This document shows, one piece after another, positions 4,838-17,806 of a DNA stretch of 40,445 nt. The translations under genes were made by a program, and so were the position numbers. The notes below the pieces were generated by a model. That model was given only the letters and a program-made list of their open reading frames with translations, ran no database searches and was not told the DNA's origin. This DNA is from a virus (taxonomy: Duplodnaviria > Heunggongvirae > Uroviricota > Caudoviricetes), in IMG/VR virus record IMGVR_UViG_2541047760_000006; one strand, written 5' to 3'. Numbering within the stretch: the stretch's first letter is position 1; each line of letters opens with the position of its first letter.

Positions 4838-5590
4838 TTATGCTGCAAGTCTCTTAACCCAAGTCTCTCTTTTGGAGAATGGTAGAACTTGGCTTGATTC
4901 ATGGAAGAGTAAGGAGAGTTGTTGCATTTGATCACCAATTGCTTCGCTGTCTATAACAACAAATCTGTTGTTATACTCCTCACTTGAAGCTTTAAGATCA
5001 ATTAGTTTCCCAAGCAATGAGTAAGCACTATTCCAGCTTCCTCCGTGTTTCACGCTTGATGTAAAAACGTATTTAGGTATGTCGGTTTTTATTGTTACAG
5101 GGACGGTAATTTGATGTCCACTCAAGCCATATACGTTTTCACGAAGAGAAAGTGCGTCTCTAAGCTCTGTGTGATATAGATAATCAATAACCATACTTTC
5201 AAACTTTTCAGCTTGAACTGGCTGATACCAGTCTAACGACAAAGTTGATGCGAGTATACCAGCTCTAATTATGTTCGATGTAATCGCACCGACATCCTTT
5301 TCTGTTGCCCAAGCAATGATTTCTCCTCGAGCATTGAGTTCTGCGCCTTCTTTAAGCAGTAATTGTCGTATCTCATCAAGTCGTTTTTTGGTAAGCGAGA
5401 TCCCTCTTGCCTCCATATTCATTAAGGCATCGCATCTGTCACTAACTAAATACCTACCATTGACTTCACGGATAAAGGCACCGACATGCTCTCCATCATC
5501 ACAGTAAGTGAATGGACTGATAATTCTCAAGGTCTTGCCTATTGGATGGCATTCGAAACCTAGTTGTGAGATCACTGTTGAGCACATCAT
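4838..5590 (-). CDS. hypothetical protein, second gene of the rex-slot cassette
   Basis: 250-aa ORF, MMCSTVISQLGFECHPIGKTLRIISPFTYCDDGEHVGAFIREVNGRYLV..., predicted soluble. ATG overlaps the upstream stop (ATGA), implying translational coupling. No recognisable family; not RexA or RexB. Confidence 0.8.
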   Translation of the reverse strand: MMCSTVISQLGFECHPIGKTLRIISPFTYCDDGEHVGAFIREVNGRYLVSDRCDALMNMEARGISLTKKRLDEIRQLLLKEGAELNARGEIIAWATEKDVGAITSNIIRAGILASTLSLDWYQPVQAEKFESMVIDYLYHTELRDALSLRENVYGLSGHQITVPVTIKTDIPKYVFTSSVKHGGSWNSAYSLLGKLIDLKASSEEYNNRFVVIDSEAIGDQMQQLSLLFHESSQVLPFSKRETWVKRLAA

Positions 5591-6144
5591 ATTCCAAACC
5601 CCATTTGCCCCGACTCATCTTCAAGCGGTAAAGGTATTCTCCCAGAGTAAGTTATGTTCAGATGTTTACAGAAGTAATTCCAATACCCTACCAGGTCATC
5701 TGGGTTTATGTCATCTTCGATTGGAAACGCTATTCTATCACTATAGTATCCAGCTTCTTCATAGTATACATGGTAGTGAGCACCGTAAATGATATCTTGG
5801 TACTTCGGATGATCGACCTTGTAACTATTCGTGTGTTTGTCAAAGTGATAGGTATCTACCGCGAAAACCCTCTTGTTATGATAGAAAGCAATAATATTTA
5901 TTTTAGGGTAAGAAATCGGGTCATCAGGTTCTGAATCCTGATCTGGTTTCCATTTCAGTTCAAACTTTAGCCCTTGTATAGGTATACAATCCTCATCCAA
6001 GGGGATGATATGGGCTTGTAGCCACATATCAGAGCGACTTGGTTTCTGTTTCCATTTAACGCCAGAAAAGTTAACTATTTTTTTACAATAAAGTACTTTA
6101 TCAACTTCTACTTGGCTTGGCTGATAATCATCTATTTTTGCCAA
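5587..6144 (-). CDS. hypothetical protein, first gene of the rex-slot cassette
   Basis: 185-aa ORF, MAKIDDYQPSQVEVDKVLYCKKIVNFSGVKWKQKPS..., His/Tyr-rich segment AHYHVYYEEAGYY. The track start at 6144 is a TTG codon; the true start is uncertain. Begins 40 nt downstream of the cI stop, same strand. AT-rich relative to neighbours. Confidence 0.75.
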   Translation of the reverse strand: MAKIDDYQPSQVEVDKVLYCKKIVNFSGVKWKQKPSRSDMWLQAHIIPLDEDCIPIQGLKFELKWKPDQDSEPDDPISYPKINIIAFYHNKRVFAVDTYHFDKHTNSYKVDHPKYQDIIYGAHYHVYYEEAGYYSDRIAFPIEDDINPDDLVGYWNYFCKHLNITYSGRIPLPLEDESGQMGFGI

Positions 6145-6183
6145 TGTTTACCGCCCTGTAAATTGTAGATAAAAGTGGTTTCA

Positions 6184-6843
6184 TCACCCAAACGTCTCTT
6201 CAGGCCATTGGCTGGCGATAACTTTCCCCACAACGGAACAACTCTCATTGCATGGGATCATTGGGTATTGTGGGTTTAGTGGCTGTAGAAACACCTGACC
6301 GCTATCCCTGATCAGTTTCTTGAAGGTAAATTCATCACCACCAAGTCTGGCTATGCAGAAATCGCCGGGCTCAACAGCTTGCTCAGGGTCAACCAGAATT
6401 AACATCCCGTCAGGAAAGCTGGGTTTGGAACCTGTTGGTGCGGTCATTGAGTTACCTTCAACCTCAAGCCAGAATGCAGAGTCACTGGCTTTTTTGGTTG
6501 TGCTTACCAATCTCTCCGCATCGCCTTTGGTAAAGGTTCTGAGTTCTGGAGAGAACATCCCAGCCTGAACATGAGAAAAAACAGGGTACTCATATTGTTT
6601 TTTAACTGGGGCCGATGAGTATTCGCCAACAGGTGAAAATGTCCCGTCGTGGTTGAATGATATGTTATCAATACCAAGGTATTTAAACACCACACCAATA
6701 TCACTAAGAGATGGATGACGAGATCCGCGCAACCAGTGTCCAATCCCACCCTGCGTCATACCTAGCTCTTCGGCTAACTTCTCTTGAGTTATGCCGAGCT
6801 CTTTCATTCTGGATCTAGCCAGTTCATACCATTTCATTTTCAT
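6184..6843 (-). CDS. cI: CI prophage repressor (HTH DNA-binding domain + LexA-like S24 autocleavage domain)
   Basis: C-terminal ~140 aa ([18 protein letters not shown]...[16 protein letters not shown]) matches the lambda cI C-terminal domain. N-terminal HTH ([37 protein letters not shown]) differs from lambda. Start at 6843 or 6837; the track ORF extends to 6885. Confidence 0.92.
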
Positions 6844-7311: not shown

Positions 7312-7611
7312 ATGGAAAGAACAAGTTACAGCAAACTATCACAGCGTGACGTTGATCGCGCAGAAACAGATTTACTTATCAATCTGTCAGCTATTACCCA
7401 GCGCGGTCTGGCAAAGATGATTGGCTGTCATGAATCGAAGATAAGCAGAACGGACTGGAGATTTATTGCTTCGGTCTTGTGTGCTTTCGGAATGGCATCA
7501 GACATCAGTCCGATTAGCAGGGCTTTTAAGTATGCGCTTGATGGACTCACCAATAAAAAACGCCCGGTGTGCAAGACCGAGCGTTCTGATCAAATACAAA
7601 TGGAATTTTAA
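7312..7611 (+). CDS. cII: CII transcriptional activator
   Basis: 99-aa translation ends ...LTNKKRPVCKTERSDQIQMEF, closely matching the lambda cII C-terminus (ILTNKKRPAATERSEQIQMEF). Confidence 0.92.
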   Translation: MERTSYSKLSQRDVDRAETDLLINLSAITQRGLAKMIGCHESKISRTDWRFIASVLCAFGMASDISPISRAFKYALDGLTNKKRPVCKTERSDQIQMEF

Positions 7612-7633
7612 CAACATCCAACGAGGTAATTAT

Positions 7634-7906
7634 ATGCGAAACAAAGGCTTTAATCCACCTGATACACACAAAGAAGCTAAGCGTTTGCGCTTCCTTCGTT
7701 CCATTGATGAAAGAACTCAAATCTCTTTTGTGAAAGTTGCCAGAACTGAGCTTCTGAAGGCTGAGGCGAGGGCGTTGCTCCCGTCTCTGCCAAAAGAGGA
7801 GGGATATACGGCCATTCCAAACGCATTTCTGGAAAAGCTGCTCAAAGAAGACATATCCGTAAGTCAGTTTAACGATGTTCTTAAGGTCTTTCGTCAAGGC
7901 AGGTAG
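7634..7906 (+). CDS. hypothetical protein between cII and the replication initiator
   Basis: Internal ATG at 7634 preceded by gagg; 90-aa product MRNKGFNPPDTHKEAKRLRFLRSIDERTQISFVKVARTELLK...; no family recognised. Confidence 0.55.
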   Translation: MRNKGFNPPDTHKEAKRLRFLRSIDERTQISFVKVARTELLKAEARALLPSLPKEEGYTAIPNAFLEKLLKEDISVSQFNDVLKVFRQGR

Positions 7907-7908
7907 TT

Positions 7909-8856
7909 ATGAGCAATACAGCAAAAATCTACGATTTCAGCGCCGCACACGAGCGCAGGAGCAACAGGATGGAGAACCAGAAAACTGGTTACATTCCGTT
8001 GTACCGGAGCATTCTGAAACAGTCATGGGCGAAAGATGTTTATCTTCGCACCCTGTGGGAAAACCTTCTCCTGAATGCCGCCAGAAAGCCATACAAAGCG
8101 AATTTCAAAGGTCATGAATGGCATCTGCAACCCGGTCAACTGGTTGTGACAGCAGCTGATTTAGGTCTTCAGTTATGCGACAGGCATGGCAAGCCGGCAA
8201 GCCGTGATCAGGTTGAGCGGATGCTTCAGGTTTTTGTGAAAGAGGGGATGATCACCATTGATGGAGAGAAGCAAAAAGGTCGTGTGATTACCATCACAAA
8301 TTACCATGAATATGCTCAAAAAATGGACGATTCGCCAGCACATGAAGCCGCACAAACAACCGCACATGATGCCGCACATGACGAAGCCAGTAATGGCGCG
8401 GCTTTCAGCGTACATGCCGCACATGAAAGCGCACATGAAGCCGCACAAACAACCGCACATCATGAACAAGAAGGTATTAACAAGAATATAAATAATACCC
8501 CCCTACCCCCCAATGGGGGAGGCGATGGGCAGGTTAAACCTGAACGTCGCAAGGCAGAACGAATCGACTACGAATCCTTCCTGAACGCCTACAACACCGA
8601 AGTCGGTGACAGACTTCCACACGCTGTTGCGGTCAACGAGAAACGCAAACGCCGCCTGAAGAAAATCATCCCGCAACTGAAAACGCCAAATGTGGACGGT
8701 TTCAGAGCGTATGTCAGGGCGTTTGTGCATCAGGCCAAGCCGTTTTACTTCGGAGACAACGACACGGGCTGGACGGCTGATTTTGATTACCTGCTGAGGG
8801 AAGATTCGTTAACGGGAGTACGGGAAGGGAAGTTTGCAGACAGGGGGATTGCATGA
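7909..8856 (+). CDS. replication initiator / replisome organiser (O-like, P22 gene 18 analogue)
   Basis: 315-aa ORF directly upstream of and overlapping (ATGA) the DnaB-like helicase gene; contains a low-complexity linker ([18 protein letters not shown]...) encoded by direct DNA repeats, as in origin-containing initiator genes. Confidence 0.85.
8335..8520 (+). repeat. putative origin of replication: iteron-like direct repeats plus AT-rich tract inside the initiator gene
   Basis: The 27-mer catgaagccgcacaaacaaccgcacat occurs at 8341-8367 and 8443-8469; at least five copies of ccgcacatga-type units lie between; followed by AT-rich 8471-8497 and inverted repeat ccccc/ggggg at 8506-8519. Confidence 0.6.
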
Positions 8857-10229
8857 GACAGGATATCGAAGCGAGCGTTATCGGTGGCCTGCTGATTGGT
8901 GGATTAACACCAACCGCCAGCGACGTTCTGGCAACGCTGGAGCCGGAAGCGTTTTCAATTCCGCTCTACCGGAAAGCCTTCGAGGTTATCCGCAAGCAGG
9001 CGCGAAACAGAAACCTAATCGACGCGCTGATGGTTGCCGAGGAGTGCGGAGAGGAGCATTTCACGTCAATCCTGATGACCAGCAAAAACTGCCCGAGTGC
9101 CGCAAACCTGAAGGGATATGCCGGAATGGTCGCGGATAACTATCACCGCCGTCTGGTGCTGGAAATCATGGATGAAATGCGTGAACCAATCCAAAGCGGA
9201 ACCATCGACGCATCGAGTCAGGCGATGGATGAGCTTGTAAAGCGTCTTTCAGCCATCAGAAAGCCCCGTGACGAGGTTAAACCTGTACGGTTAGGGGAAA
9301 TCATCACCGACTACACTGACACGCTTGACAGGCGTCTGAGGAACGGAGAAGAGTCCGATACCCTGAAGACCGGAATCGAAGAACTTGATGCCATCACCGG
9401 AGGGATGAACGCGGAAGACCTGGTGATAATCGCCGCTCGTCCTGGTATGGGTAAAACCGAACTGGCGCTGAAGATTGCCGAAGGCGTTGCAAGTCGTGTT
9501 ATTCCTGGTTCTGACATCCGGCGTGGAGTATTGATTTTCTCAATGGAAATGAGCGCATTACAGATTGCAGAGCGAAGCATTGCCAACGCCGGGAGGATGT
9601 CGGTTAGCGTACTGCGAAATCCTGCATCGATGGATGACGAGGGCTGGGCGCGTGTTGCTAACGGCATGAGTCAGCTTGCAGATTTGGATGTATGGGTAGT
9701 CGATGCCTCGCGGTTATCGGTCGAAGAAATACGCTCAATCGCAGAACGGCACAAACAGGAAAATCCAAACCTGTCACTCATCATGGTGGATTATCTTGGC
9801 CTGATTGAGAAGCCGAAAGCAGATCGCAACGACCTCGCAATTGCTCACATCTCCGGAAGCCTGAAGGCGATGGCGAAAGACCTGAAAACACCGGTTATCT
9901 CCCTGAGTCAGCTTTCGCGCGATGTTGAGAAGCGACCAAACAAACGCCCGACAAACGCAGATTTGCGTGATTCAGGAAGCATTGAACAGGACGCAGACTC
10001 AATCATCATGCTCTATCGGGAAGCGGTATATGACGAGAACAGTAGCGCCGCGCCATTTGCTGAAATCATCGTGACGAAAAACCGTTTTGGCTCACTTGGT
10101 ACGGTTTACCAGCGGTTCTGCAACGGACACTTTGTTGCATGTGACCAGGATGAAGCCAGGCAGATTTGCACAGCATCAAATGCACCTGCTGCACGTGGCA
10201 GACGATATGCACAAGGGGCTGACGTATGA
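8853..10229 (+). CDS. DnaB-family replicative helicase (P22 gene 12-like)
   Basis: 458-aa product with Walker [10 protein letters not shown], Walker [10 protein letters not shown] and DnaB C-terminal motifs ([17 protein letters not shown]); same length as P22 gp12. Confidence 0.95.
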
Positions 10230-10301
10230 CCATCTACATCACTGAGCTAATAACAGGCCTGCTGGTAATCGCAGGCCTTTTTATTTGGGGGAGGGTAAAT
10301 C

Positions 10302-10508
10302 GTGGCTGAGTTAATTTTCTCTGCATTGAGGATTCTCGGTGCTATGTGGATGGTGGCGACGTTCATTGTTGTTGCCAGCAGTTTTGTCCGGTTGGTAGGC
10401 GAAGGTAAAGACCTGGTGGGTGTGCTTTTCGGTAGCATTCTCATGTGGGTGATTATCGGTGTTATGCCTGTCGCTGTAGCAAAAATGGCGTGGCGTTTTG
10501 TGAGTTGA
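10302..10508 (+). CDS. small hydrophobic (two-TM) nin-region protein
   Basis: 68-aa ORF with a GTG start after ggggaggg RBS; predicted membrane micro-protein (MAELIFSALRILGAMWMVATFIVV...). Confidence 0.5.
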   Translation: MAELIFSALRILGAMWMVATFIVVASSFVRLVGEGKDLVGVLFGSILMWVIIGVMPVAVAKMAWRFVS

Positions 10509-10525
10509 ACTGAGGGTAAGTATCG

Positions 10526-10840
10526 ATGGACGAATCAAGAAAGCAGTTTGAAGAAAGTTGGTTGCGACGTGGGGGCGAATCTTCAGACCTTATCCGTTAC
10601 CCTGAAAATCACCATGAAATTGGCAGCGGTAATATTGGTGGTCAATACGTGATGGACGATGTTCAAGGCCACTGGCAAACGTGGCAGGCATCGAGAGCAG
10701 CTATTGAAATTGAGCTGCAAAAGCCAAAGAAAGGCCCACTTCCCGGTGATTATCACATTGGCTATGACACAGGTGCAGAATCACAATACGAAAGCGATGT
10801 AGAGGCCATCCGCACTGCTGGAGTCAAAGTGAAGGAGTGA
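10526..10840 (+). CDS. hypothetical nin-region protein
   Basis: 104-aa ORF, ATG start, tightly packed with neighbours; no family recognised. Confidence 0.6.
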   Translation: MDESRKQFEESWLRRGGESSDLIRYPENHHEIGSGNIGGQYVMDDVQGHWQTWQASRAAIEIELQKPKKGPLPGDYHIGYDTGAESQYESDVEAIRTAGVKVKE

Positions 10841-10842
10841 GT

Positions 10843-11007
10843 ATGAGCGCATACGAAGAAATCATGTTAGCCCTGCGATTCTTTTTCGGTGTGGAAGAAG
10901 ATGAAAACGTAAATGAGATTATCGGGCAAGACCATGACCCGATAGGGACTATTGCAGCTGCACTTGACGATTACAGGAGCGTAAATGGTGAGGAAACTAA
11001 CGTTTGA
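10843..11007 (+). CDS. small hypothetical protein (54 aa)
   Basis: Not in the ORF track. ATG at 10843 after gaaggag RBS; MSAYEEIMLALRFFFGVEEDENVNEIIGQDHDPIGTIAAALDDYRSVNGEETNV; overlaps the ninB start. Confidence 0.35.
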   Translation: MSAYEEIMLALRFFFGVEEDENVNEIIGQDHDPIGTIAAALDDYRSVNGEETNV

Positions 11008-13175: not shown

Positions 13176-13260
13176 AGTCAGAGATAACAATCAACTAATA
13201 CTGTTTTGTTGATTTTTGCTTGTAATTGGCGTTCTGGTCTGATTTTTGTGGAGTAAGTTG

Positions 13261-13644
13261 ATGCGTGATATTCAGATGGTTCTTGAGCGTTGGGGTGCGT
13301 GGGCGGCTAATAATCATGAAGATGTGACCTGGTCGTCCATTGCCGCCGGTTTTAAGGGATTAATTCCTTCAAAAGTAAAATCTCGCCCGCAATGTTGTGA
13401 CGATGACGCGATGATCATTTGCGGGTGCATGGCCCGTCTGAAAAAGAACAACAGCGATTTACACGATTTATTAGTAGATTATTATGTATGTGGTATGACA
13501 TTCATGTCACTGGCAAGTAAGCATTGCTGCTCGGATGGTTATATCGGGAAAAGGTTACAGAAGGCTGAGGGCATAATTGAAGGGATGTTAATGGCATTAG
13601 ATATCCGGTTAGATATGGATATCGTTGCTAATAATTCTAATTGA
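13261..13644 (+). CDS. Q: late-gene antiterminator Q (QuuD / phage 82-type)
   Basis: Internal ATG at 13261 after ggag; [34 protein letters not shown]... with Cys-rich zinc-binding region; matches DLP12 QuuD as recalled. Confidence 0.92.
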
Positions 13645-13700
13645 TATGCAATTGTTTACTAAAAGTTATTAAAAATGGGGCGTGGAAACGCCCCCAAAAT
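13641..13700 (+). promoter_or_regulatory. candidate late promoter pR' with qut / early-pause hairpin
   Basis: TTGATA (-35-like) overlapping the Q stop, AT-rich -10 candidates about 17 bp downstream, then hairpin ggggcgt-ggaaa-acgcccc (13677-13694). Positional analogy to lambda pR'/qut; boundaries uncertain. Confidence 0.4.
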
Positions 13701-13780
13701 AAAGGGTAATATATAACAGAAGGTTTATATAGTAAGAAGCAAGGTAGTGCTTCTAAAGGAAGTGGCTTGAGGGCTCCACT

Positions 13781-13821
13781 TATATGTTGCGGAGGCAAAG
13801 CCTCCCGCAACATATCTTTTT
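13781..13821 (+). terminator. rho-independent terminator (tR'-like; also 3' of the convergent porin gene)
   Basis: Long stem tatatgttgcggaggc / gcctcccgcaacatat with loop aaa, followed by cttttt on the plus strand. Confidence 0.7.
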
Positions 13822-13832
13822 CGTAAGTCAGA

Positions 13833-14915
13833 TTAGAACTGATAAACCAGACCTACAGCGACGATGTCGTCGGTATCAATACCAGCTGTTTTGGTAAACT
13901 TACTATCGTCAATTAAGTTGATTTTGTAATCAACAAAAGTGGACATGTTTTTATTAAAGTAGTAAGTAGCACCGACATCGACATACTTGACTAAGTCTCG
14001 GTCACCATGAACACCAAGGTCTTTACCTTTTGACTGAAGGTAAGCAACAGATGGACGCAGACCGAAGTCAAACTGATATTGTGCTACTGCTTCAAAGTTT
14101 TGTGCTTTGTTTGCAATATGGTTATTACCAAAAACGGTCATATTCTGAGTTTCAGAATATGTGGTAGCCAGATAGATATTGTTCGCATCATATTTCAGGC
14201 CTGCAGCCCATACTTCCGCATTTTTGCCGGAGGCATTGAATTTGCTCTTACCATAGGCGACCTGACCGTCAGTGCGATCTGATTTAGCATAGGTTGCACC
14301 CACGCCGAATCCTTCATACTCATAAGTAGTGGAGAAACCGAAACCATCACCATTGGCTTCAGTTACGTCAGTGCGGTCATTTTTACCCTGATACTGAGCA
14401 GCAAAGTTCAGGCCATCGACCAGACCAAAGAAGTCGTTGTTACGATAAGTTGCAACACCAGTAGTGCGACCAGTCATGAACACATCTGTTTGGGTCCAGG
14501 TATCACCACCGAATTCTGGCAGAACGTCAGTCCACGCACCGATGTCGTATGCTACACCGTAGTTACGGCCGTAATCGATTGAGCCGTAATCACCAAATTT
14601 CAGGCCTGCAAATGCAAGACGGGTTTTGTCTTTGGAAGAACCTTGAGATTCAGCACGGTTGCCTTTGAATTCATATTCCCACTGACCGAAACCAGTCAGT
14701 TGATCGTTGATTTGGGTTTCACCTTTGAAGCCAAGACGGGCATAAGTAGTATCACCATCATCTGCATCATTAGAGGAGAAGTAGTGCTTGGCATTAACTT
14801 TCCCGTATAGATCCAGCTTGTTACTGTCTTTATTATAAATTTCAGCTGCCTGAGCAGACATCGCCATCAGTACTGATGCAGCTACAGCAGAAATTGCCAC
14901 TGTTAATTTTTTCAT
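13833..14915 (-). CDS. nmpC: OmpC/OmpF-family general porin (NmpC / Lc-like, phage-borne)
   Basis: Signal peptide [23 protein letters not shown] then [17 protein letters not shown]... and C-terminal ...VAVGLVYQF, classic enterobacterial porin features. Start taken at the internal ATG 14913-14915. AT-rich upstream region 14916-15300. Confidence 0.95.
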
Positions 14916-15341
14916 TGTACGCCCTTTTTTTGAACTTTTATTAAAAAATGATGTCACTGCGCGATAAATATTCATCTAATCAATGTGATTATTTCAAGAT
15001 GTAAGTTTTAGTTTCTCATTTAATTTGTGAAGTAGATCTCTATTTTTATCTGAACCTTTTCTATCTAATCCTATTCATGGCTCTTGTCTGAACAAAAATA
15101 AATCTATTAGCTAATTTATATTAATGGCACTTATTTATAAGTGCTCTATAATTCTTTAGCTTAATTTAAACAAACTAAAAATAACATCGGAAATTATTAA
15201 CTGGTTATTTGTTGAAGTTTTCTTATGCATTTGTGGTGGTGTTTTGAACACTCGGTGGCATTCTCACAAATATCATTTAGTAGTTTACGTACGTAAAAAA
15301 TTGGTTATGCTGTTAAGAGTGGTTACTTCGTCACACAGCTT

Positions 15342-15375
15342 AAACCCGCCGTCGAGCGGGTTTTTCCATTTTTTG
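15342..15375 (+). terminator. rho-independent terminator upstream of the lysis cassette
   Basis: Stem aacccgc / gcgggtt with loop cgtcga, followed by tttttccatttttt on the plus strand. Confidence 0.7.
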
Positions 15376-15503
15376 AGTCTCGATATTAGCTGATAACCCA
15401 ATACCTGAGTTATTCACTGACTCCGAATCTGTTACGTTTCTGCCTTTATTGCGATACGTAGTATCCCCTTAATTTACACCCGCTTTGTCTGCGAGGTGGG
15501 GTT

Positions 15504-15719
15504 ATGAAATCCATGGATAAGTTAACAACGGGTGTCGCCTATGGTACCTCAGCAGGTAGTGCCGGGTACTGGTTTTTACAGTTGCTCGATAAAGTCACGC
15601 CCTCACAGTGGGCGGCAATAGGTGTGCTGGGTAGCCTGGTATTTGGCCTGCTGACGTACCTGACAAACCTTTATTTCAAGATTAAAGAAGATAAGCGCAA
15701 GGCTGCGAGAGGTGAATAA
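15504..15719 (+). CDS. essD: class II holin (phage 21 S / EssD-like pinholin)
   Basis: 71-aa product [71 protein letters not shown], two TM segments; RBS gaggtgggg. Confidence 0.93.
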
Positions 15720-16216
15720 TGCCTCCATCATTACGAAAAGCCGTTGCTGCTGCTATTGGTGGCGGAGCAATTGCTATAGCATCAGTGTTAATCACTGGCC
15801 CAAGTGGTAACGATGGTCTGGAAGGTGTCAGCTACATACCATACAAAGATATTGTTGGTGTATGGACTGTATGTCACGGGCATACAGGAAAAGACATCAT
15901 GCTCGGTAAAACGTATACCAAAGCAGAATGCAAAGCCCTCCTGAATAAAGACCTTGCCACGGTCGCCAGACAAATTAACCCGTACATCAAAGTCGATATA
16001 CCGGAAACAATGCGCGGCGCTCTTTACTCATTCGTTTACAACGTGGGTGCTGGCAATTTCAGAACATCGACGCTTCTTCGCAAAATAAACCAGGGCGATA
16101 TCAAAGGCGCATGTGATCAGCTACGTCGCTGGACATATGCTGGCGGTAAGCAATGGAAAGGTCTCATGACTCGTCGTGAGATTGAGCGTGAAATCTGTTT
16201 GTGGGGTCAGCAATGA
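15719..16216 (+). CDS. rrrD: SAR endolysin (GH24 lysozyme with N-terminal signal-anchor-release segment)
   Basis: ATG overlaps the holin stop (TAATG). N-terminal hydrophobic Gly/Ala-rich segment [18 protein letters not shown] followed by a T4-lysozyme-like domain; resembles phage 21 R / RrrD. Confidence 0.93.
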
Positions 16217-16705: not shown

Positions 16706-16999
16706 TTATTGTGAGCAATACACACGCGCTTCCAGCGGAGTATAAATGCCTAAAGTAATAAAACCGAGCAATCCATTTACGAATGTTTGCTGGGTTTCTG
16801 TTTTAACAACATTTTCTGCACCACCACAAATTTTTGCTGCATCGACAGTTTTCTTCTGCCCAATTCCCGAAACGAAGAAATGATGGGTGATGGTTTCCTT
16901 TGGTGTTACTGCTGTAGGTTTGTTTCCAACAGTAAACGTCTGTTGAGCACATCCTGTAATAAGCATTGCCAGAGCGGCAGAAAACAACATTTTTTTCAT
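16706..16999 (-). CDS. bor: Bor outer-membrane lipoprotein (serum-resistance lysogenic conversion factor)
   Basis: Start at internal ATG 16997-16999: MKKMLFSAALAMLITGCAQQTFTV...GIYTPLEARVYCSQ, near-identical to lambda Bor; lipobox LITGC. Confidence 0.95.
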   Translation of the reverse strand: MKKMLFSAALAMLITGCAQQTFTVGNKPTAVTPKETITHHFFVSGIGQKKTVDAAKICGGAENVVKTETQQTFVNGLLGFITLGIYTPLEARVYCSQ

Positions 17000-17479: not shown

Positions 17480-17806
17480 ATGAAAAGACGCCTTTTACTA
17501 CTTTTTCTGTTATCTGTCCTGGCAGTGGGATGCTCGCAGCAAAAAGCTGATGAGCCCCGGCAATTAGTGACGGTGTATCCACGATATCCGGAATATGCTG
17601 CAGCAAATTATATCAAGGGGCTGGTTGAGGTTAAGTTCGATATTGGTGCTGATGGGACTGTGACACGGATCGTTTTTCTCCGCTCAGAGCCTCATAATTT
17701 GTTTCGTGATGAAGTGGTGAAGGCCATGGCGAAATGGCGATTTGAAAAGAATCGCCCCTGTCAGGGAGTGAAGAGACAATTTATCTTTACGCCGTCACGT
17801 CCTTGA
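17480..17806 (+). CDS. small lipoprotein with TonB C-terminal-like domain
   Basis: Internal ATG at 17480; signal/lipobox MKRRLLLLFLLSVLAVGC; mature part YPRYPEYAAANYIKGLVEVKFDIGADGTVTRIVFLRSEPHNLFRDEVVKAMAKWRFE aligns with the TonB C-terminal domain pattern (YP..A....I.G.V.V.F.I..DG.V.......S.P...F...V..A...WRF). Confidence 0.75.
   Translation: MKRRLLLLFLLSVLAVGCSQQKADEPRQLVTVYPRYPEYAAANYIKGLVEVKFDIGADGTVTRIVFLRSEPHNLFRDEVVKAMAKWRFEKNRPCQGVKRQFIFTPSRP

Follow-up and report, generated by a model that had tools for sequence, protein, structure and literature searches.

The closest described relatives of the locus analysed here are lc of phage PA-2 and nmpC of the K-12 prophage DLP12 (qsr'), two porin genes that have the same position and orientation between the antiterminator gene Q and P21-type lysis genes. 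The arrangement is thus already known, having been sequenced in PA-2 (J02580) and annotated in thousands of genomes. The porin transcript of these elements gives rise to ipeX, a 167-nt RNA that is made as part of it (PMC12197685). In Escherichia coli CFT073 the NmpC porin c1560 has been reported at both the protein and the mRNA level, with induction at 37 °C and in urine (PMC2680622, PMC12890032).

We analysed a 40,445-nucleotide stretch of Caudoviricetes DNA (IMG/VR record IMGVR_UViG_2541047760_000006), hereafter the window, in which Q is followed by a minus-strand porin gene and then by the holin gene, starting at 15504 (Table 1). The porin is the intact form of DLP12 nmpC::IS5 and of phage PA-2 lc; the K-12 copy differs in carrying IS5 after codon 346, and in both relatives the flanking non-coding DNA is 90–100% identical to that of the window. 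Prophages of E. coli CFT073, Nissle 1917 and ATCC 25922 contain a 2.55-kb block of the window with 100% identity, and at least 80% of this block is found in 2,395 of 5,426 complete E. coli genomes. Over the window as a whole, positions 10994-40445 are 99.45% identical to CFT073 and positions 7608-10993 have no counterpart there; judging from gene order, c1560 of CFT073 would be this very porin copy. The porin lies between Q and the lysis genes, on the opposite strand, in all related loci long enough to show the layout (72/72). We consider it likely that this is an autonomous NmpC/Lc porin cassette (about 13668-15045) occupying a slot between Q and the late promoter, and that late transcription starts downstream of the porin.

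Table 1 Features between Q and the first late genes, in window coordinates
Feature	Position	Strand	Basis
Q antiterminator, QuuD type, Q21 family, 127 aa	13261..13644	plus	Pfam, structures, CFT073 quuD annotation
Promoter-like site within Q, TTTACA-16-TATTAT	13458..13485	plus	Consensus scan, 10/12
Porin 3'UTR, ipeX-region equivalent, about 165 nt, five hairpins	13668..13832	minus	Homology and folding
Intrinsic terminator of porin transcript, GGGGCGT-TTCC-ACGCCCC then AUUUUUA	13668..13694	minus	Terminator scan, folding
T-run hairpin: intrinsic terminator after Q (plus), first 3'UTR hairpin (minus)	13782..13821	plus/minus	Folding
Porin CDS, NmpC/Lc type, 360 aa	13833-14915	minus	Pfam, structure matches, RefSeq, PA-2 record
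Plus-strand promoter activity antisense to porin 5'UTR	14932..14965	plus	Published sigma-E-type essDp and K-12 Cappable-seq start
Predicted porin promoter (start ~14961; -10 GAATAT 14973..14968; -35 TTGAAA 14997..14992)	14960..15041	minus	Conserved in P7/JL22
CRP site of predicted porin promoter, centred at -72.5	15026-15041	minus	P7/JL22 conservation, PA-2 annotation
Palindrome GTTTACGTACGTAAA, proposed Q-binding element	15283..15297	plus	Class pairing with Q
Late promoter -10 TATGCT; start A at 15318	15306-15311	plus	TAnnnT conservation, K-12 start
tR' intrinsic terminator, 25 nt after late start	15342..15375	plus	Terminator scan, folding, conservation
First late genes: P21-type pinholin (essD), lysozyme (rrrD)	15504-15719, 15719-16216	plus	Pfam, CFT073 annotation

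Pfam Porin_1 (PF00267) covers the porin over the entire profile (1-337/337, E 1.9e-151), and the protein aligns end to end with solved OmpC, OmpK36, OmpF and PhoE chains (E about 1e-137 for OmpC, OmpK36 and OmpF), sequence matches that point to a trimeric 16-strand beta-barrel with channel activity. It carries the loop-3 PEFGG motif (...LPEFGGDTW...) and a C-terminal phenylalanine (...VGLVYQF), and its signal peptide is encoded by 14847-14915 according to the J02580 annotation. The true start is the ATG of MKKLTV... at 14915, which matches RefSeq and the PA-2 lc record; a 380-aa mechanical open reading frame that begins at an ATG upstream of it was rejected. The initial annotation, made from the sequence alone, had described a complete OmpC-family porin on the minus strand with its own AT-rich upstream region and no interrupting insertion element, and this description holds: the Porin_1 match is full length, the GC content is 0.24-0.28 upstream (14900-15300) versus 0.38-0.49 within the gene, and the frame is intact, with no IS element in the window copy where the K-12 copy has IS5. 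The proposed comparison with NmpC and Lc gives 91% protein identity to both (90.7% to PA-2 Lc; 91% to K-12 NmpC, reconstructed across IS5), and neither a truncation nor a frameshift relative to these homologues, which had been named as counter-evidence, was found. The differences from NmpC and Lc are grouped in five short patches with small indels, which by analogy with OmpF/OmpC topology may be the surface loops L4-L8. The porin is a plausible lysogenic-conversion gene. To call it inserted, as had been done, is apt, although the inserted unit, from ~13668 to ~15045, is larger than the coding sequence.

On its 3' side, the ~165 nt between the porin stop codon and Q are, judged by homology and folding, the porin's own structured 3'UTR. 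The segment is 94% identical to K-12, shares its hairpins and terminator, and folds at -53.6 kcal/mol (z -6.5); a homologous 3'UTR follows nmpC in P7 and JL22, which have no Q, with compensatory changes in the stems. It ends in an intrinsic terminator that had been missed before (hairpin 13694..13677 followed by a U-run, -13.8 kcal/mol, z -3.2), which is conserved in P7 and retains its stem, with a changed loop, in K-12. Since this minus-strand terminator lies at 13694..13677, the Q and porin genes have overlapping, convergent 3' ends; only about 24 nt separate the Q stop codon from the porin 3'UTR. Compared with ipeX, the window 3'UTR has the 94% identity to the K-12 region, the same terminator end and a similar length (~165 versus 167 nt); it has no Rfam family match, its identity being drawn from sequence and position, and the Rfam search returned only two sub-threshold matches, sau-19 and Trp_leader, which are just terminator hairpins. 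In PA-2 and DLP12, ipeX is known to lower OmpC and OmpF, as Castillo-Keller et al. 2006 reportedly found, and by analogy the window 3'UTR may have the same role. A structured 3'UTR of the ipeX type also accompanies nmpC in P1-like phages.

This 3'UTR bears directly on where late transcription begins. The initial annotation had Q-modified transcription start from pR', pass a terminator at 13781-13821, read antisense through the porin and pass a second terminator before reaching the lysis and structural genes; in this model pR' would lie directly after Q and the hairpin at 13782-13821 would be tR'. Such an order would follow the canonical lambda and phage 21 layout, in which the phage 21 pR' begins 7 nt past the Q stop codon; a good plus-strand terminator does lie 137 nt past the Q stop codon in the window, and in phage 434 and Lambda_2E9, too, one terminator closely follows Q and a second one immediately precedes the holin. 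However, 13668-13832 is porin 3'UTR that is kept in Q-less phages, which leaves only the ~24 nt after Q, and a consensus scan found no plus-strand promoter-like site after Q in 13668-13832. K-12 Cappable-seq has no plus-strand start between Q and nmpC, there is no space for a pR' after Q in those relatives whose Q directly adjoins minus-strand genes, and the Q-class-specific site described below is located at 15283 and not directly after Q. The elements to be expected of a pR' sit at 15283-15375, and we regard antisense read-through of the porin as very improbable. A conserved ATATAACAG in 13645-13780, a candidate pR' -10 from alignment with Lambda_2E9 and IdasGreatGrand, was rejected as lying within the porin 3'UTR; P7 has CTGTTATTTATTACC there, on the minus strand.

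The two plus-strand terminators that were said to bracket the porin are nevertheless real features, with hairpins and T-runs present at both 13782-13821 and 15342-15375. The first consists of a hairpin at 13782-13815 followed by C-TTTTT and folds at -21.9 kcal/mol on the plus strand (z -5.9 versus shuffles) and at -22.7 kcal/mol on the minus strand; P7 has a hairpin of other sequence at the equivalent place, without an opposite-strand T-run. Most likely, the 13782-13821 hairpin only ends transcription leaving Q. Cappable-seq coordinates were converted with an offset of +777, which we take to separate the two K-12 releases. With this offset, a K-12 plus-strand start (U00096.2 573406, RRS 9.3) falls at about 13488, just past the promoter-like site within Q, which would be a source of plus-strand RNA running into the porin 3'UTR region. 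Q itself matches PF06530 (E 2.9e-52) and the phage 21 Q structures 6P18 and 6JNX (E 4e-8, residues 6-86), and CFT073 annotates quuD at the same coordinates. At the other end of the locus, the pinholin matches PF04971 (E 2e-35) and the lysozyme PF00959 (E 1.3e-45).

The elements expected of a late promoter are found downstream of the porin instead. The palindrome GTTTACGTACGTAAA occurs once in the window, where 0.01 chance matches are expected, and is followed by a -10 that is selectively conserved: among 38 distinct variants, A(-11) and T(-7) are present in 38/38 and T(-12) in 36/38, whereas the middle three positions are free. A K-12 Cappable-seq start (U00096.2 576452) falls on the same base as 15318; it is weak (RRS 1.7, with a cut-off of 1.5). 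A mapped start would come this close to the prediction (1 nt or less) by chance with a probability of about 0.5% (16,539 starts, 9.28 million strand positions). The terminator scan places a hairpin at 15342-15363 followed by TTCCATTTTTT, and folding agrees. This terminator is 98-100% conserved in 71/72 loci while its flanks are only 84-92% identical, homology stops right after it in four loci, and the unit to which it belongs is kept in 71 of the 72 related porin loci. What had been taken for a second terminator to be crossed is probably tR' itself. No -35 hexamer match was found upstream of TATGCT, and no sigma-dependent pause element was recognised at phage 21's location (+2..+7). Only 3 nt beyond TATGCT there is another -10-like hexamer, AAGAGT (15315-15320, -3..+3), and Lambda_2E9 has TATAGT at the same offset. 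One further candidate was rejected: TATAAT at 15147-15152 (ATGGCA-17-TATAAT), as a pR' with a lambda-sized leader of 190 nt, has surroundings that differ between the window and K-12 although their Qs are near-identical, and no mapped start. The tR' sequence resembles the terminator that follows Q in phage 434 (AAACCCGC...GGGTTT), but too generically to be taken as homologous.

Relatives show the late-promoter unit at varying distances from Q. A leader 18-mer is found in at least 120 viral contigs, and among the 118 that were fetched a same-strand Q21-family gene is present in 95 of the 95 with a detectable upstream Q, the other 23 having less than 1.9 kb of upstream sequence. The distance from the Q stop codon to the leader ranges from 39 nt to 2,921 nt. 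At the short end, with 39 nt, are four 'empty sites' (L101, L146, L150 and L172), in which the late-promoter unit is all that lies between Q and the late genes; elsewhere, the DNA between Q and the leader consists of about 20 unrelated cargos, mostly on the minus strand. Cargos seen in relatives include a PDC-S20-like KAP NTPase, a PDC-M68A-like HNH protein and an OLD-like ATPase with a methyltransferase. Since the unit either adjoins Q or is parted from it by these cargos, the porin is most likely cargo of such a slot between Q and Q's promoter and does not belong to the late operon.

The same relatives connect the palindrome to Q. There is a one-to-one correspondence between five classes of the variable Q segment and five palindromes located at -35..-21, with no exception among 77 distinct combinations drawn from 162 loci. 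All pairs lie within 3 kb, and the pairing could partly reflect shared ancestry and linkage. Lambda_2E9, which has no leader, carries the palindrome of its class followed, at the same 8-nt spacing as in the window, by TATGAT, 1.9 kb downstream of Q. The 15283-15375 segment could in principle be a mere insulator terminator with a chance promoter-like sequence, its pairing with Q being co-inheritance and the true late promoter lying elsewhere; linkage over such short distances would allow this, the K-12 start at 15318 is weak, and phages with a pR' elsewhere also have terminators just upstream of the holin. However, at empty sites the unit is the sole element between Q and the late genes, the pairing holds over about 20 cargos and extends to a phage whose leader differs, the TAnnnT pattern indicates selection on precisely those two bases that are critical in a -10, and the mapped start would have to be a coincidence of the low probability given above. 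An insulator therefore seems to us quite improbable, and we retain 15283-15375 as the late promoter with its terminator.

Upstream of the porin, P7 and JL22 keep the porin promoter elements and the 5'UTR, and at the CRP site they match TGTGAttttgaTCACA perfectly; in the PA-2 record, too, a CRP site is annotated at the place equivalent to that of the window. On the plus strand, the same region contains promoter activity. The primer pair in PMC7918800 puts the published essDp +1 near 14965, and a strong K-12 Cappable-seq start (U00096.2 576081, RRS 90) corresponds to position 14948, with a -10 of TATTAT in K-12 versus TTTTAT in the window. The Q-responsive promoter could hence be the published sigma-E-type essDp (-35 GAACTT 14932-14937, -10 TCACT 14954-14958, start near 14965) or the sigma-70 start 17 nt upstream, with transcription crossing the porin promoter region and antitermination occurring at 15342-15375. 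As far as the work cited in PMC7918800 is presented there, the DLP12 lysis operon is controlled by a Q-type antiterminator and RpoE, and the Q-responsive promoter is assigned to the sigma-E-type site near 14965. The strong K-12 start lies 370 nt upstream of the weak one at 15318, and the -121..+650 fragment (PMC7918800) also holds 15283-15375, which means that the experiments using it do not separate the two sites. Against essDp, no Q-class-specific element adjoins it, P7 and JL22, where no lysis genes follow, keep its sequence within the porin 5'UTR, it is absent from relatives that carry other cargos although these retain the 15283-15375 unit, and the nearby sigma-70 -10 of the window, TTTTAT, is without the key A. 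We consider an essDp-driven late operon unlikely.

With the late promoter downstream of the porin, the locus can be read as two separate transcription units. In the lysogen, the cassette would be transcribed from its own CRP-dependent sigma-70 promoter to give a general-diffusion porin, the transcript ending at its own terminator after the structured 165-nt 3'UTR. The late promoter at 15283-15318 would fire weakly and constitutively, producing an RNA of about 55 nt that is stopped at tR'. Upon induction, Q would bind the palindrome at 15283-15297 and join RNA polymerase there, and the modified polymerase would pass tR' into the holin, lysozyme, spanin and structural genes. The porin would never be crossed by late transcription, whose start is downstream of it, and the 13782-13821 hairpin would prevent a head-on collision of plus-strand transcription from Q with the porin gene.

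The porin in itself alters nothing, being a textbook lysogenic-conversion gene with existing annotation. Beyond this locus, we lean slightly towards a general rule for the Q21 branch (QuuD, SfII, cdtI and 2E9 types), by which a class-specific inverted-repeat Q site takes the place at -35, there is no -35 hexamer, and the gap between the Q stop codon and the promoter is a recurrent slot for opposite-strand, lysogen-expressed cargo insulated from late transcription, including the NmpC/Lc porin and several candidate anti-phage defence genes. A narrow literature search found no description of the insertion slot or of a palindromic Q site. Promoter placement affects the predicted expression of prophage porins and prophage defence genes, and pR'/tR' would be the proper annotation for the plus-strand element that precedes the holin, in place of a stray terminator. 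The five pairs of Q class and palindrome also constitute a ready set of orthogonal Q-site pairs that is directly testable.

Among known late switches, that of phage 21 is alike in the Q family, a Q site just upstream of the -10, a short leader (about 50 nt) and a terminator at once after it, and the empty-site relatives likewise have the unit directly after Q. It differs in that its Q site, located between -35 and -10, is a pair of direct 8-bp repeats, whereas the proposed window site is an inverted repeat at -35..-21 and the window late promoter has no -35 hexamer. Furthermore, the window unit lies 1.64 kb from Q because cargo intervenes, compared with 39 nt in the empty-site relatives. Shiga-toxin phages are similar in that they, too, are lambda-like prophages with an accessory gene placed between Q and lysis genes. 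There, stx is located on the late strand downstream of pR', with pR'/tR' before it and the holin gene after it, and its expression is induced together with that of the late genes. In contrast, the window cargo lies upstream of pR', on the opposite strand and with its own promoter. Cargo in this slot should hence, unlike stx, be expressed from its own promoter in the lysogen, without being driven by Q or co-induced with the late genes.

The interval 13645-15503 is the entire gap between the Q antiterminator and holin genes and holds, as the initial annotation had stated, a complete OmpC-family porin gene on the minus strand. The protein covers the full Pfam Porin_1 profile (E 1.9e-151), aligns end to end with the solved OmpC, OmpK36, OmpF and PhoE chains, and carries a signal peptide, the PEFGG loop-3 motif and a C-terminal ...VYQF. 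Mechanical ORF calling begins at an upstream ATG and yields 380 aa; from the annotated MKKLTV... start at 14915, shared with PA-2 lc, the protein has 360 aa. The upstream region is strongly AT-rich (GC 0.24-0.28), and the two plus-strand hairpins previously read as terminators both exist and fold well. By Pfam, the other neighbours are a lysozyme, RusA upstream and a Bor/Iss lipoprotein downstream. Just past the lysis cassette lie two more accessory genes, for this Bor/Iss serum-survival lipoprotein (16706-16999, minus strand) and a TonB C-terminal-domain protein (17480-17806, plus strand), the same pair as in phage 21.

Genes and predicted control features around the porin
Feature	Coordinates	Strand	Remarks
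Q antiterminator gene	13261-13644	+	family PF06530
Porin terminator, canonical	13694..13677, then U-run	-	terminator scan and folding
Porin gene	13833-14915	-	single real gene in the gap
Porin -10 GAATAT	14973..14968	-	common to P7, JL22
Porin -35 TTGAAA	14997..14992	-	common to P7, JL22
CRP site	15026-15041		common to P7, JL22; P7 version a perfect TGTGAttttgaTCACA
Candidate late -10 TATGCT	15306-15311	+	8 nt past palindrome
Holin gene	15504-15719	+	P21-type

The proposed route of late transcription, from a promoter beside Q and antisense through the porin, is not supported. Its supposed first terminator for Q-modified polymerase, at 13781-13821, is the first hairpin of the porin 3'UTR, which occupies 13668-13832 on the minus strand, continues with three further hairpins and folds at -53.6 kcal/mol (z -6.5) over ~165-167 nt. 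This region is known in DLP12 and PA-2 as ipeX. The original ipeX paper reportedly found that it lowers OmpC, and the 3'UTR here would act likewise. The RNA is produced as part of the porin transcript (PMC12197685). In the P1-like phages P7 and JL22, an nmpC homologue (81% identical) sits between odaA/hxr and ssb without a Q in the vicinity, and the DNA past its stop is homologous to 13668-13832 along the entire length. A hairpin of different sequence stands at the same place past the stop, stems change from AAGTGG...CCACTT to AGGTGGC...GCCACCT and from AGAAGCA...TGCTTCT to AGAGGCAA...TTGCCTCT, and the motif CTGTTATATATTACCC and the porin terminator are retained. Because homologous DNA follows nmpC where no Q is near, the stretch 13668-13832 is to be counted as part of the porin cassette. 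Only ~24 nt separate the Q stop codon from the cassette end, which is too short for a promoter, Q site, pause site and terminator, and the Cappable-seq listing for MG1655 contains no plus-strand start between Q and nmpC.

Plus-strand transcription out of Q does exist, given that a promoter scan finds a promoter-like site within the Q coding region (13458-13485) and a K-12 plus-strand start maps to approximately window 13488 (Cappable-seq, RRS 9.3). RNA starting at this site would run antisense to ipeX and stop at the terminator 13782-13821, which would protect the porin from it. P7 lacks the plus-strand T-run after the 13782-13815 hairpin, which suggests that the T-run was gained in a lambda-like context as a stop for transcription on the plus strand.

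At the other end of the cassette, P7 and JL22 share the porin 5'UTR with the window. The predicted porin start at ~14961 puts the centre of the CRP site at -72.5, a standard class I position, and the porin would be transcribed in the lysogen from this CRP-dependent promoter of its own. In the PA-2 record J02580 a CRP site is marked at the corresponding position. Similarity between the window and P7 fades past ~15045, and the cassette therefore spans ~13668-15045. The PA-2 lc record carries a second CRP annotation (J02580 1067-1087); this site lies within the late-promoter leader, at window 15320-15340 (GTGGTTACTTCGTCACACAGC), and has one good half-site only.

Related phages point to a late promoter downstream of the porin. 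The Q proteins of SfII and cdtI are 42-48% identical to that of the window, and minus-strand genes lie 3-23 nt past the Q stop, so the late promoter cannot adjoin Q there. The stretch following these genes is 90-96% identical to window 15288-15364. Searching a viral contig collection with an 18-mer from this stretch, TTAAGAGTGGTTACTTCG, gave at least 120 contigs, of which 118 were examined: wherever an upstream Q could be detected (95 loci), it was a same-strand gene of the Q21 family, and the other 23 contigs extend <1.9 kb upstream. Between the Q stop and the element (15283-15375 in the window) there are 39 nt to 2,921 nt. In four loci without cargo (L101, L146, L150 and L172), Q ends in TAA and is followed by 39 nt, GTTAAGAG..., the terminator and then late-strand DNA; phage 21 has the same layout. 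These 39-nt loci show the element to be the usual successor of Q. The DNA between the two comprises ~20 cargos with no detectable similarity among them, their largest ORFs nearly always on the minus strand, and this gap is a recurrent cargo slot in the related loci L093-L210, equivalent to window 13645-15282.

Just upstream of the invariant leader lies a palindrome that varies by Q class and pairs one-to-one with it, without exception across the 77 distinct combinations seen at 162 loci. The 11-residue Q segment of the window class goes with GTTTACGTACGTAAA, RSDCWVGRLLQ with GTTTACAATCGTAAA, CSDGTIRKELQ with ACGCGTACGC, KDEKLIRIEIQ with CGCGGTCCGC and ISLNQVVIRLQ with TGTGTTATAACA; between classes, similar segments go with similar palindromes. 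The palindrome is unique within the window (0.01 chance matches expected). The common leader is missing from Lambda_2E9. The palindrome of its Q class is present in exact form 1.9 kb downstream of Q, followed after 8 nt by TATGAT at the same spacing as in the window; an earlier reading that placed the promoter of this phage beside Q was dropped. Among 38 distinct variants of the hexamer 8 nt past the palindrome, A(-11) and T(-7) are present in 38 and T(-12) in 36, and the middle three positions vary freely, the behaviour expected of a -10. On this sequence evidence, the class palindrome, Lambda_2E9 and the -10 conservation mark the element as a putative Q-dependent promoter without a -35. Its hexamer predicts a start at A 15318, and the terminator stem starts 25 nt further on. 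Q would bind the palindrome, be loaded at the 15283-15318 promoter and overcome tR' (15342-15375). A second -10-like hexamer lies 3 nt past the first (AAGAGT at window 15315-15320; TATAGT at 5848-5853 of the Lambda_2E9 locus, L005); it is too close to the first to be a phage 21-type pause element.

The element is 100% identical in K-12, for which a Cappable-seq table (MG1655, glucose minimal medium, U00096.2 coordinates, RRS cut-off 1.5) lists nearby plus-strand starts at 573406, 575093, 575453, 576081, 576452 and 576907. For conversion we assumed an offset of +777 between the two K-12 releases at this position, which fits the coordinates of essD and ompT. Start 576452 then falls on base 6230 of the K-12 locus (L001), the A at window 15318. 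Its signal is weak (RRS 1.7), and chance would put a start no more than 1 nt from a given base in ~0.5% of cases (16,539 starts, 9.28 million strand positions). At the equivalent of window 14948 (L001 5859), within the porin/nmpC 5'UTR region, lies a strong start (RRS 90) whose -10 is TATTAT in K-12 and TTTTAT in the window. Directed across the porin promoter toward tR', this start could interfere with that promoter.

Studies cited in PMC7918800 place the DLP12 lysis operon under a Q-type antiterminator and RpoE. The fragment used there, described as -121 to +650, has primers mapping to window 14844 and ~15628, which puts the published +1 near 14965, adjoining a sigma-E-like GAACTT-16-TCACT. 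The fragment also holds the 15283-15375 unit, so the DLP12 experiments fit either site. We favour a late promoter at 15283-15318, since it holds the class-specific site, since all relatives retain it regardless of their cargo, and since P7 conserves the sigma-E-like sequence as a piece of the porin 5'UTR. Promoter activity of the fragment may well stem from the strong K-12 start, which may be what was studied as essDp.

Some slot cargos match candidate defence proteins: a KAP NTPase in L167 (PADLOC PDC-S20, E 2e-176), an HNH-type protein in L128 (PDC-M68A, E 7.5e-27) and an OLD/Gabija-like ATPase in L204 (HEC-04, E 2e-36); L208 carries an NYN nuclease. The L204 ATPase adjoins a putative cytosine methyltransferase, judged by eye. 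Two loci of the 2E9-like class, L186 and L125, have TTGGAGATGAATAAT... ~20 nt before the palindrome. This sequence resembles the 3' end of a Q gene (...LEM...), even though the complete Q is found another 620 nt upstream, and looks like a remnant of the junction that originally joined Q and promoter. The slot, with its class-specific palindromic Q sites, may deserve a separate look.

The porin itself is ordinary. The block 13200-15750 (2,551 bases) is found at 100% identity in prophages of E. coli CFT073, Nissle 1917 and ATCC 25922 and in phages ev017 and PhiR57_1; it has a match in 4,672 of 5,426 complete E. coli genomes, and at least 80% of it is found in 2,395. Collinearity with CFT073 is limited to the late region: window 1-119 matches the end of an IS3-family element region in its prophage, and 7608-10993 (replication and nin-left region) has no counterpart there. 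Elsewhere, L038 carries ~720 bp of extra DNA between the 3'UTR hairpin and the porin stop (5561-6285), and in L023 the match is interrupted (from 6722) at 67 nt before the start of the porin gene, both probably IS insertions. NmpC of CFT073 (c1560), by gene order probably this copy, has been reported as a urine-induced protein and shows a strong preference for 37 C over 23 C in both RNA and protein (PMC2680622, PMC12890032). This spread, the identity to NmpC/Lc and the c1560 reports identify the porin as the intact form of an already known lysogenic-conversion gene, a role that the initial annotation had considered plausible. The cryptic K-12 prophage DLP12 has the same layout (quuD, nmpC, essD, rrrD) and is ~95% identical in both non-coding stretches, but its nmpC carries IS5, whereas the window porin is free of insertion elements. 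NmpC rebuilt from its two K-12 fragments (365 aa) is 91% identical to the window porin, with differences and small indels grouped in five short patches, and lc of PA-2 (J02580), placed likewise with respect to the lysis genes, is 90.7% identical.
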